The notes under the pieces are model-generated. The model worked only from the letters and a program-made list of their open reading frames with translations, made no database searches and was not told the origin of the DNA. Positions 13,663 through 16,226 of a stretch of DNA of 64,000 nucleotides are shown here, piece by piece. Both the position numbers and the translations under genes were made by a program. The stretch is from the NCBI GenBank assembly GCA_963740355.1, contig CAVUDW010000002.1:1568001-1632000 (forward strand), in the 5' to 3' direction. Numbering within the stretch: the first letter of the stretch is position 1; each line of letters begins with the position of its first letter. Origin of the DNA: an uncultured Gemmatimonadaceae bacterium. GTDB taxonomy: Bacteria; Gemmatimonadota; Gemmatimonadetes; Gemmatimonadales; Gemmatimonadaceae.

Positions 13663-14613
13663 TCAGTCGCCCTCCGGCTCCGGACCGAAAACTTCGAGGA
13701 AACGTCCACCGGAGAGCGCTCCGCTCCGGCCATGGACGAAGTAGGCGCGGGCGGGATCCGTCGCGGTGGCGCCGGCCTGTGGCTCGAGTAGCATCCGCAG
13801 GCCGGTGCAGAGAAAGCTGTGGCAGATGTCGGCCCGCAGGTCCGGGGCGAGGGTACAGCCGCGCTCACCCTGGTAGACACACCCGTGCGTCATGGTACGC
13901 GCGCCGATGTGCCGCCCATACTCGGCAACCACCATGTCGTCGTCGGCCGTCGGATGCCGATGCAGGTAGCGGAGCATCGTGTCCGAGGTGATGTACGCCC
14001 GGTTTCCGGCCTTCCGGCAGCAGGCACCACGGCAGGCGGCGCAGGCTGCCAGCAGCAACTGCGCTTCGGCATCGGCGGCCGCGGAGGCCGTCCGGCTGAG
14101 CTCCGCGCCTGGTTCGACGGTCGGCGGGTCGGCTTCGGGTGGTTGCGGTTCTGTCGCGAGCCTTTGGCGCGCCTCCGTCAGGCACGCCCGCAGGTGCGCC
14201 TCATGCAGCCCGCGCCGTCGGGCAGGGATATTGGAGACGCGATCGTCGTTATACGGCAGGAGCGCCACGCGGTAGCTCGCCTGTGCCTCACGCGAGATGC
14301 CCTTCGCGGCGGCCGATCGACTGCGACGTCGGCGCAACTCGTCGAGCAAGGCTTCCTTCGCTGCCGCATCCCGAAGGCGTTTCGCCTCGAACACGGCGGC
14401 GCGACATGGCGGGTTGTCACAGTACCCACGTGCGCGCTGCGCAGGCGCCAGTGGTCGAGTGCACTGCGAACACTTGAAGGCCGATGGTATCGCGGCGTGC
14501 TTCCCCGCGCAGATGCGCGATTGGCAGAGCACGTCTTGCAGCGGCCGAAAGGCGGCCAGCGGCGCGCCGCACATTACGCAGGCGGTGACGGACGCCTTGA
14601 TAGCGGGCTGCAT
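13663..14613 (-). CDS. Cys-rich protein: N-terminal zinc-ribbon-like repeats plus YkgJ-like cysteine-cluster domain
   Basis: CVMC..CQSRIC and CSQC..CDNPPC at the N-terminus; CAACRGACC...CVYQGERGC...RADICHSFLC at the C-terminus. Confidence 0.7.
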   Translation of the reverse strand: MQPAIKASVTACVMCGAPLAAFRPLQDVLCQSRICAGKHAAIPSAFKCSQCTRPLAPAQRARGYCDNPPCRAAVFEAKRLRDAAAKEALLDELRRRRSRSAAAKGISREAQASYRVALLPYNDDRVSNIPARRRGLHEAHLRACLTEARQRLATEPQPPEADPPTVEPGAELSRTASAAADAEAQLLLAACAACRGACCRKAGNRAYITSDTMLRYLHRHPTADDDMVVAEYGRHIGARTMTHGCVYQGERGCTLAPDLRADICHSFLCTGLRMLLEPQAGATATDPARAYFVHGRSGALSGGRFLEVFGPEPEGD

Positions 14614-14710
14614 GGTGGCAGTTGGTTGAGTCAAATCACGAAGACGAGATACATAGGGCTCTCCTCCGAGCGAGGCAACGCCATCAGGTAGGCACGTCGC
14701 CACGCTCTCC

Positions 14711-15286
14711 CTACGCTCTCAGAAGCGTCCCGTTCAGGTCTGCCTGACCGGACTCGAGACATCGCTTGAGATAAGCGAGGTAGTCACGTGTTGTGTCGTC
14801 GACCTGAGCGTTCCGCAGCAGGATCCAGATCTCTGTCGCAGCGAACACCTTTTGCGGTGCGCCCGCCTGGGCGCCGAGGTAGAACGAAACCGCGCCACTG
14901 GCATTGGCTGCGTAGATGCCGGAGAGGGCGCGCCACATGATCAGCATGTCGGGTGACTCCCGCGGCAAGGTTCGTCGTAACTCCTCCTCGACGGATTCGG
15001 CGTAGTGACGGAGTGACGGGAACTTCGTATCCGGCGCTGGAACACGCTCCATCACTTGTGGCAAGATTTCCTTGTCTGCCCATTGCGGTTCCGTCTTCTG
15101 CAGCGCCAGCAGACTGCGCCAGACCGGTGCATCATAGCCAAACCCGTAATACGAATTACCAATCGTATTCTTGAGTTCACCGGCGTAGAACAGCGCCTTG
15201 CCTGGCGAGGCACGAAGCGCGCGGCGCACGGCCGGATGGTCGTGGAGGTAGCGGAGAAACAGCGTGGTGCGCGATGACAGCGCCAT
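14711..15286 (-). CDS. Putative ADP-ribosyl cyclase-fold (ARC) NAD+ glycohydrolase/cyclase, stand-alone
   Basis: ALFYAG, MWRALSGIYAANASGAV and KVFAATEIWILLRN occur in the order of the ARC motifs (FWSG; W..S..YA..A.G.V; S.F...E...L); GAGG RBS upstream of ATG. Confidence 0.65.
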   Translation of the reverse strand: MALSSRTTLFLRYLHDHPAVRRALRASPGKALFYAGELKNTIGNSYYGFGYDAPVWRSLLALQKTEPQWADKEILPQVMERVPAPDTKFPSLRHYAESVEEELRRTLPRESPDMLIMWRALSGIYAANASGAVSFYLGAQAGAPQKVFAATEIWILLRNAQVDDTTRDYLAYLKRCLESGQADLNGTLLRA

Positions 15287-15518
15287 GGGTCCTCGCCAGG
15301 CGGGAGGGGTATGATGACCCTAATATACGGGACGACATTCGTGCCGCGCTGCGGCCATCGGCCGTTTGCCAGCTTCCGTGACGGACGGCTACGTTGGAGG
15401 AGGGGCGTTCGCGAGCTGAGGGTCACAAAGAATCGCGAGGTCTGAGCAGGTGCGAATATCCCGTCTCGCCCGCCCGTCACATGAAGTACACACTTCGTTG
15501 GCAATCGAGGGATGCGTC

Positions 15519-16226
15519 ATGACTGACATCGTGGGTAGCCAACGGGCAGCGGCCCAATACAACGGCAAGGCGATCGCGTTCTCGCAGGGTGCGGACCTTT
15601 GCGATGCTCTCGTTTCGCGCTGGATCCGAAAGCGGTTTCGCAACAAGGATTTCTTCAATCCGCGCTACTTCAAGGATTGGACCGTCCCGGACAACGCGAA
15701 GTCCTTTCTGCTGGGCTATAAGAGCTGGGCACCAGGACCTGACCCGAAAAAGACGAAACTCGGAGCCGCGCCGGGCGGTTCGCGCGTGATTGGGATGCAA
15801 AAGGCCTTCATCGGGAAGCCGGATGTGTCGAATTCCTACATCCAGCAAGGAAAGCCGAGTCAACCCAACAAAGGCAACGAAAATGACTTGAAGATGTATC
15901 CAACGGCAGCGCGCATTGCGGACAAGGTCGAAACCAAGGACCTGGACCACATCAGCAAGGATTTTCAGGACATCGATCGTCGGCGCCTGATGGTGTCGTT
16001 TTCGTTCCGAACGTTCAACACATCGCATGCGTGTGCACTCGATGCACGATCAGCGAACGACGTCCGCTACTTCGATCCAAACATTGGAGAATTTCGATTC
16101 AACAACTTCAAGGACTTCGTAGGCTGGTGGACGCACTGCGCGAAGACGAAGGGTGCTAGCGCGAAAAAGGAAGGTTTTGACATATTTAACGGACTATTCG
16201 CGTACACCACGTTCACTAACCCTTGA
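15519..16226 (+). CDS. YopT/AvrPphB-like (peptidase C58) papain-fold cysteine protease
   Basis: Cys in FSQGADLCDALVSRW, His in SHACAL, Asp in YFDPNIGEFRF; RBS GAGGGA before ATG 15519. Confidence 0.8.
   Translation: MTDIVGSQRAAAQYNGKAIAFSQGADLCDALVSRWIRKRFRNKDFFNPRYFKDWTVPDNAKSFLLGYKSWAPGPDPKKTKLGAAPGGSRVIGMQKAFIGKPDVSNSYIQQGKPSQPNKGNENDLKMYPTAARIADKVETKDLDHISKDFQDIDRRRLMVSFSFRTFNTSHACALDARSANDVRYFDPNIGEFRFNNFKDFVGWWTHCAKTKGASAKKEGFDIFNGLFAYTTFTNP

Follow-up and report, generated by a model that had tools for sequence, protein, structure and literature searches.

Two probable orphan effector-like genes, one encoding a divergent ADP-ribosyl cyclase-like protein, at the border of a Gemmatimonadaceae type VI secretion cluster

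Bacterial enzymes with the CD38 fold were characterized only in 2025, and almost all of those known are toxin domains that come with carriers and immunity proteins. ARCtox, the C-terminal domain of Pantoea ananatis PANA_2924 (PDB 9ro8), and Tac1 from Streptococcus parasanguinis (9ouf) are CD38-fold NAD(P)+ glycohydrolase toxins of type VI and type VII secretion systems (T6SS and T7SS; PMC12605009, PMC12356396). Colautti et al. also report stand-alone ADP-ribosyl cyclase (ARC) effectors linked to the T6SS, with downstream immunity genes other than Imm74, and stand-alone Nac enzymes, such as Nac1 from Actinophytocola oryzae, which are described there as having neither an immunity gene nor the second Glu of the active site and as producing cyclic ADP-ribose (cADPr; PMC12356396). 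Here we analyze a 64,000-nt stretch of the Gemmatimonadaceae contig CAVUDW010000002.1 (the window; GC content 0.645; coordinates are window positions throughout), in which three genes lie side by side near a T6SS cluster: one for a 191-aa ARC-like protein (14711-15286, minus strand), one for a 235-aa protein resembling the C58 peptidase YopT (15519-16226, plus strand; full open reading frame (ORF) 15450-16226, 258 aa) and one for a 316-aa Cys-rich protein (13663-14613, minus strand; full ORF 13663-14703, 346 aa).

A preliminary description of this locus had treated the three genes as one new conflict system. Co-occurrence was measured from the side of the ARC family: a scan of 185,579 species-representative genomes with this family yielded 26 loci, covered for up to 10 kb on each side and for less in short contigs. 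Tblastn at E<=1e-3 found a relative of the C58 protein or of the Cys-rich protein in none of the 26 loci, and all-against-all clustering of the neighbors within 4 kb gave no neighbor family shared beyond close relatives. The proposed islet therefore does not hold together when co-occurrence is measured, and toxin-like folds adjoining a secretion cluster are no evidence of a system. The reading that we favor, with a probability of about 0.5, is that the locus holds two orphan effector-like genes and a resident gene, that the ARC enzyme is a probable T6SS cargo and that there is no three-gene system. At the border of the T6SS cluster, a resident gene would then have come to lie next to two stand-alone effector-like genes, each acquired separately.

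The link to secretion comes from the neighborhoods of the ARC family. T6SS core genes lie within 10 kb of the ARC gene in 5 of the 26 loci; these five, from soil bacteria, represent three phyla (Gemmatimonadales, Terriglobia and two Burkholderiales genera). VgrG and ClpV are found nearby in one Gemmatimonadales locus (L002) and together with RHS in another (L025). The ARC gene lies between VgrG and TssK/TssBC in a metagenome-assembled genome (MAG) of Terriglobia (L004) and adjoins TssM, with TssK and VgrG further out, in Massilia sp. CFBP 13721 (L022). In a Piscinibacter MAG (L015), the ARC-family gene (9989-10522) is placed between tssE (9461-9985) and tssF (10536-12437); the interior of a core T6SS operon is an unusual site for a non-core gene. 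By a rough estimate, a T6SS-bearing genome has only ~1-2% of its sequence within 10 kb of the cluster, and by the same rough reasoning four lineage-independent adjacencies are unlikely to be due to chance. Since the family recurs inside or beside T6SS clusters, export by the T6SS would be the most likely route, with the ARC-like protein as a non-covalently loaded cargo; at ~19-21 kDa, it should be small enough for the usual loading into Hcp or onto VgrG. One of the options raised in the preliminary description, orphan T6SS cargo, thus gains comparative support for the ARC-like gene and for no other gene of the three.

On the basis of profile searches and a predicted structure, we assign the window protein to the ADP-ribosyl cyclase/CD38 fold, of which it is a highly divergent representative with a single domain. 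The family alignment (A1) comprises 28 proteins, i.e. the window protein and 27 non-self relatives, mostly ~173 aa long and none with a Pfam domain; weak matches to PF02267 occur in 7 of the 28, and this is the sole Pfam family matched by more than one member. NCBIfam and PADLOC returned nothing for the window protein. The best matches of the A1 profile in the PDB were Tac1 (E 0.0025) and ARCtox (E 0.014). A HMMER search with A1 against 1.84 billion representatives returned 134 proteins at E<=1e-3, including a second tier of stand-alone proteins of 205-250 aa, of which 14 were aligned as A3 (P0147, P0155, P0160, P0162-P0166, P0171, P0172, P0175, P0176, P0184 and P0185). Comparison of A1 with A3 by hhalign gave a probability of 99.7% (E 2.2e-25), and the A3 profile matched Tac1 at E 1.5e-8 and ARCtox at 8.6e-7, the next match being the Aplysia ADP-ribosyl cyclase at E 0.3. 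Because A3 bridges A1 to Tac1 and ARCtox, the ARC fold can be accepted for the window protein. The AlphaFold2 (AF2) model has a predicted local distance difference test score (pLDDT) of 81.4 and a predicted TM-score (pTM) of 0.81, with residues 1-30 modeled as folded helices (pLDDT 90-98), and the 50 best-ranked Foldseek matches in the PDB are all ARC/CD38 structures, ARCtox and Tac1 being the top two. The ARC-type fold named in the preliminary description is thereby retained, not by Pfam alone but by profile, sister-family and fold evidence. The A3 proteins form an unannotated, Lys-rich, stand-alone family with an invariant W, S and E and a TLEDVL-like motif, and are far nearer to Tac1 and ARCtox than the window family is.

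In CD38-fold enzymes, an essential catalytic Glu (CD38 E226, Tac1 E573, ARCtox E356) acts in an active site lined by two Trp residues (CD38 W125 and W189; ARCtox W273 and W323), and a second Glu (CD38 E146, Tac1 E516, ARCtox E299) drives hydrolysis of the cyclic intermediate (PMC12605009, PMC12356396). HMMER aligned W118 and E152 of the window protein to a Trp and a Glu of 9ro8 that are 33 residues apart, which is the spacing of ARCtox W323 and E356; by this alignment, E152 is equivalent to the catalytic Glu of CD38, Tac1 and ARCtox, and W118 to CD38 W189. Both residues, together with S122, are invariant in all 28 members of the family, and all three are also present in 23 of 23 full-length locus copies. 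At the position of the first active-site Trp (CD38 W125, ARCtox W273), the W of the toxins' FFWSG motif was aligned by HMMER to Y34. This position is Tyr in 27/27 A1 sequences and in 13 of the 14 A3 sequences, the remaining one having Trp, and in the 23 full-length locus copies it is Tyr throughout save for a single Phe, such that an aromatic residue is kept. Position 77 is likewise restricted: 18 of the 28 members have D, 7 have E and 3 have Q, and all 23 full-length locus copies have D or E. The three proteins with Q77 are the window protein and its two closest relatives, and the same three carry a 13-residue insertion within residues 37-53, directly after the YAG motif of the active site, modeled with pLDDT <50. 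The ARC enzyme would thus have a modified active site in which the catalytic Glu and the adjacent Trp are kept, Tyr replaces the first Trp and Gln occupies position 77. Its most likely reaction would be cleavage of NAD(P)+ at the nicotinamide-ribose bond, and its product balance may be shifted toward cADPr or its activity attenuated; either change would explain how the protein is tolerated without an immunity gene.

The family as a whole is small in size and simple in architecture. It has no Pfam model, and the 134 representatives (clustered at 50% identity) are all unannotated or labeled 'hypothetical'. Convincing matches among them are all <=288 aa long and single-domain, without fusion to a trafficking domain; N-terminal extensions in a few look like mis-called starts. 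The single match of 529 aa is a repeat protein that aligns in six weak stretches. The 26 loci belong to Gemmatimonadales, Terriglobia, Pyrinomonadaceae, Binatia and several classes of Pseudomonadota, a patchy distribution across phyla. Their neighboring genes were typed by tblastn and Pfam (E<=1e-5; 107 + 47 = 154 ORFs), and neither Imm74 nor Imm63 was found among these 154 ORFs. RHS genes occur in L003, L005 and L025, and relatives of the window's Ser/Thr kinase near the ARC gene in L002, L003, L004, L005 and L022. Two contigs of one Gemmatimonadales MAG each carry a part of the ARC gene (L025:5-214 and L026:3309-3641) and are probably pieces of a single locus with a Big_1 protein, the ARC gene, RHS, VgrG and ClpV.

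Some neighbors recur without reaching the window. A DUF922 gene lies directly downstream of the ARC gene in two Gemmatimonadales MAGs (L002:6469-7059 and L003:6114-6770) and directly beside vgrG in the Terriglobia MAG (L004:8186-8773), and DUF922 may be a T6SS-linked effector family in its own right. By tblastn, the window shares none of the neighbors found at Gemmatimonadales ARC loci (DUF922, TsiV-like, CsgG-like, Big_1 and RHS), the sole match being a PD40 repeat at 62.8-63.7 kb. An isochorismatase-family gene is next to or near the ARC gene in two genomes of Variovorax (L007:9286-9825 and L009:8006-9121), which, coming from one genus, count as a single observation. The isochorismatase family includes nicotinamidases, and this neighbor hints at a link to nicotinamide salvage. 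A gammaproteobacterial MAG encodes a TIR_2-domain protein (L016:7354-8607) ~1.4 kb upstream of the ARC gene, the sole defense-like neighbor in the 26 loci.

The fold call also holds for the 235-aa protein, which by sequence is a minimal stand-alone peptidase C58, i.e. a papain-fold cysteine protease of the YopT/AvrPphB type, as the preliminary description had proposed. The match to Pfam PF03543 (36.7 bits; cut-off 23) is limited to positions 106-178 of the 205 in the profile, roughly one-third of its length; the NCBIfam model TIGR01586 reaches 24.7 bits, under its cut-off of 52.95. Profile matches to the C58 domain of PfhB2 (6u8t; E 0.003/0.0019) and to AvrPphB (1ukf; E 1.1) both extend over His170 and the FDPNxGEF motif that contains Asp186. 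Of the 30 clusters nearest to it in the ESM Atlas, 28 consist of small C58 proteins, for the most part from Pseudomonadota. The single non-self relative, P0030, is 58% identical and keeps C28, H170 and D186. The protein would act as a cysteine protease through these three residues, H170 and D186 being placed by alignment and C28 as the putative nucleophile, and it is probably a second orphan effector. Tblastn found no relatives of it on PLSDB plasmids, and a limited literature search, with records judged without full text, turned up no T6SS-delivered C58 effector.

The Cys-rich protein belongs to a different setting. Its 21 non-self relatives (alignment A2) are 40-66% identical, and two of them are named as Gemmatimonadaceae by their source. 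Across the 22 sequences, 13 Cys residues and three His residues (H39, H137 and H140) are invariant or nearly so, arranged in two N-terminal CxxC-type clusters and a C-terminal cluster of the pattern CAACRGxCC ... GC ... C ... C ... C, from which we infer that the protein binds metal. Pfam (E<=1), NCBIfam and PADLOC assigned it to no family; across the 22 relatives, Pfam matches were scattered, with zf-C3H1 (E 0.0099; two of the 22 sequences) as the best. The CAACRGxCC motif resembles that of the YkgJ/CxxCxxCC cysteine-cluster proteins; membership in that family was discarded, the protein having no Pfam match at E<=1. A profile search of the PDB gave nothing below E 0.12 (best match CsoR), the ESM Atlas neighbors are 'hypothetical protein' clusters only, and the AF2 model (pLDDT 81.2) had a best Foldseek match of E 1.2, which allows no assignment. 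The GC content of the gene (0.691) and that of its third codon positions (GC3, 0.782) are like those of resident genes. It is probably a gene of the Gemmatimonadaceae lineage that is merely downstream of the effector pair and not part of it.

The arrangement of the genes is as first described. ORFs confirm two toxin-fold genes diverging from a spacer of exactly 232 bp (15287-15518), and the Cys-rich gene follows the ARC-like gene at a distance of 97 bp in the same orientation. The start of the Cys-rich gene at ATG 14613 is agreed by its relatives and the database copy P0031, and that of the C58 gene at ATG 15519, preceded by GAGGGA, by the database copy P0029; both ATG codons flanking the spacer have a GAGG-type motif upstream. 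No signal peptide is apparent in the ARC-like or the C58 protein when the N-termini are judged by eye, and none of the three proteins has a PAAR, RHS or MIX domain by Pfam at E<=1. There is also no obvious small immunity gene: the ORFs of >=50 aa that touch the spacer (15052-15504, 15177-15338 and 15389-15658, all on the minus strand) each run through part of the ARC or C58 coding sequence, in a different frame or on the other strand. A promoter scan of 13300-16500, of a type that covers sigma-70-like promoters only, returned 0 sites. No terminator-like site lies between the genes; the 4 found in the same interval are all within the C58 coding region, a number not above that of shuffled sequences (mean 2.1). 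GC and GC3 are 0.541/0.678 for the C58 gene, the lowest GC among the 13 genes measured, and 0.606/0.714 for the ARC gene, with 0.62-0.69/0.74-0.84 for the other 11.

Several points weigh against two acquired effectors with the ARC enzyme as T6SS cargo. The direct PF02267 score of the window protein is weak (11.6 bits against a cut-off of 25; E 0.18), and so are the Foldseek scores of its model (best E 0.013, TMt 0.51-0.52, rmsd >6 A). HMMER left the region of the second active-site Glu unaligned; the residues of the window protein there are K72-E73-I-L-P76-Q77, with E73 varying across the family (E in 13/27), and position 77 is presumably in the region of CD38 E146, where residue spacing and a CD38 motif would place it. 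No tool aligned C28 to a known catalytic Cys; its surroundings (DLCDALVSRW) resemble the C58 motif. The independent acquisition of the ARC and C58 genes is suggested by GC content, which is its sole basis. None of the T6SS marker or adaptor domains PAAR, MIX, FIX, DUF4123, DUF1795 and DUF2169 was found by Pfam in or next to the window's genes. Since strongly weakened Tac1 variants are still toxic in Escherichia coli, as reported by Colautti et al. (PMC12356396), an active cytoplasmic ARC enzyme without immunity remains awkward. Finally, 21 of the 26 loci have no T6SS core gene within the DNA examined, such that the family is not confined to T6SS contexts, and at many loci the neighbors are housekeeping genes (lpxD/lpxB, secA, hisS-like genes and an acetate-type symporter).

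Such loci would be expected if the ARC-like protein were a non-toxic cytoplasmic ADP-ribosyl cyclase resembling Nac, serving the physiology of the producing cell by making cADPr or trimming NAD-derived nucleotides; its place beside the T6SS would be incidental or regulatory, e.g. through a nucleotide signal that the neighboring kinase links to control of the T6SS, and the C58 protein would be unrelated. The lack of a conserved immunity candidate and of a trafficking domain, the isochorismatase-family gene in the two Variovorax loci and the Gln of the window clade at the otherwise acidic position 77 are all consistent with this, and Nac1, which is reported to lack the second Glu and to make cADPr, can be purified from E. 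coli without immunity (PMC12356396). However, T6SS core genes at 5 loci from three phyla, including the insertion between tssE and tssF, are far above the rough 1-2% expected of a housekeeping gene, and the patchy phylum distribution and lowered GC fit mobile effector genes; Nac1 moreover has a Sec signal peptide, whereas none is seen by eye in the window protein. We regard a resident cyclase of this kind as possible, though rather doubtful. If, instead, the family were a T6SS cargo class that makes cADPr or a related nucleotide in eukaryotic grazers (amoebae, ciliates or fungi) and so hijacks Ca2+ signaling, paired here with a YopT-like protease as an anti-predator islet, then this would account for the missing immunity genes, the substitutions to Tyr and Gln and the embedding in T6SS clusters; we consider this reading unlikely.

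The two remaining explanations give the Cys-rich protein a role. It could be an immunity protein outside the Imm74 family that protects against an antibacterial ARC NADase, which corresponds to the neutralization considered in the preliminary description. The two genes are on the same strand without a terminator-like site in the 97 bp between them, one Cys-rich relative (P0032) and one ARC relative (P0003) both report a longest contig of 28,570 bp, and non-Imm74 immunity genes downstream of T6SS ARC effectors are known, with products predicted to plug the active-site cleft (PMC12356396). Yet no Cys-rich relative accompanies the ARC gene in any of the 26 loci, including those of Gemmatimonadales (L002, L003, L005 and L024-L026), and 20 of the 21 non-self Cys-rich relatives report longest contigs of sizes that match no ARC relative. 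With 316 aa and a composite architecture of zinc-ribbon-like and Cys-cluster parts, the protein is also unlike the described small immunity proteins, and the GC of its gene is resident-like, unlike that of the ARC gene. Neutralization by the Cys-rich protein is accordingly regarded as very unlikely. NAD-depleting and protease-containing defense systems exist in general, and a three-gene anti-phage module of the abortive-infection type would have the C58 protease activate the ARC enzyme, or be activated by it, with the Cys-rich protein as sensor or regulator. What speaks for it is physical adjacency and the divergent promoter region. PADLOC-DB 2.0 gave no match at E<=1 for any of the three proteins, and the neighboring Ser/Thr kinase matched generic kinase models only; the genes do not co-occur, they differ in GC, and the ARC loci have no consistent defense-island neighbors, the one TIR_2 gene being confined to L016. 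A limited literature search, again with records judged without full text, turned up no ARC-fold anti-phage defense system. The protease-activated NADase or cADPr defense module put forward earlier is therefore scarcely credible.

The three genes lie between T6SS-side genes and sugar genes, as Pfam matches of the flanks confirm. The T6SS core block (3-8982, plus strand) encodes TssE, open at the window edge, TssF, TssG, ClpV, VgrG and a DUF6931 protein, identified through GPW_gp25, T6SS_TssF, T6SS_TssG, AAA_2/ClpB, Phage_GPD/Gp5_C and DUF6931, respectively. A Ser/Thr kinase (9332-10972) and an 807-aa Big_2/PD40 protein (10979-13402), both typed by Pfam and encoded on the minus strand, separate this block from the three genes. 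The DUF6931 gene (8323-8982) begins at the last base of the vgrG stop codon, and after it comes an ORF of 183 aa (8924-9475) that matches no Pfam family; as candidates for adaptor, effector or immunity genes linked to the VgrG of this cluster, these two are more obvious. The other flank, devoted to sugar catabolism, encodes a 767-aa protein without a Pfam family, an alpha-L-fucosidase and an altronate/galactarate dehydratase. The 767-aa ORF (16341-18644, minus strand), for which NCBIfam has no family either, contains a signal-peptide-like stretch ~100 residues in, and its true start is probably later than that of the ORF; adjoining the fucosidase gene, it may encode an undescribed glycoside hydrolase. 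At a distance from the T6SS block, a gene at 39257-41317 (minus strand) encodes a 686-aa protein with an FHA domain and an SLT lytic transglycosylase domain.

Should the ARC family be secreted, the range of known T6SS cargo becomes wider, and the producer's tolerance of such an enzyme calls for an explanation; should it stay in the cell, it joins the very few indications that cADPr is made by bacteria for internal purposes. The preliminary description had considered the combination of genes to be without described precedent, which has to be qualified for the ARC component, as precedents were published in 2025 (PMC12605009, PMC12356396). For the C58 protein, the known relatives are YopT, a Yersinia type III secretion system (T3SS) effector, AvrPphB of Pseudomonas syringae and PfhB2 of Pasteurella. 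The window protein shares with them a Pfam match above cut-off, the His ... FDPNxGEF motif and a His-Asp spacing of 16. Unlike them, it has neither a T3SS signal nor a chaperone-binding region at its N-terminus, and both a prodomain and a large adhesin carrier are missing; its putative Cys is only 28 residues from the N-terminus, and it is found in a Gemmatimonadaceae host beside a T6SS cluster, with no T3SS in the window.

ARCtox, Tac1 and the window's ARC family have in common the fold, a Trp-x3-Ser ... Gly ... Glu core that includes the essential Glu, and the association with T6SS clusters. Toxins of the ARCtox/Tac1 type are C-terminal domains on PAAR, VgrG, Rhs, LXG or CdiA carriers, or stand alone with a downstream immunity gene, whereas the window family is single-domain, has no conserved immunity gene, carries Tyr in place of the first Trp, is without a Glu assignable by alignment to the second catalytic position and is missed by Pfam (E 0.18). 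The Tox-ARC/Imm74 modules of Zhang et al. (2012, PMC3482391), as predicted there, have the same fold and a conserved Ser and Glu signature, but the window family has neither Imm74 nor Imm63 among the 154 neighboring ORFs, nor a trafficking domain. Compared by description only, Nac1 and the window protein both stand alone as ARC proteins, neither has an immunity gene next to it, and the second acidic position is altered in Nac1 and probably so in the window protein; by analogy, cADPr could be a product in both. Nac1 carries a Sec signal peptide and is encoded outside any polymorphic-toxin context, whereas the window family, in which no signal peptide is apparent by eye, recurs in T6SS loci. A context of the Nac type, without secretion components, fits 21 of the 26 loci, where as elsewhere no immunity gene is conserved, and fits neither the other 5 nor the window. 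The ARC family thus combines the T6SS context of the T6SS-linked effectors with the lack of an immunity gene and the altered active site of Nac, and its sequence has diverged much further than that of either.

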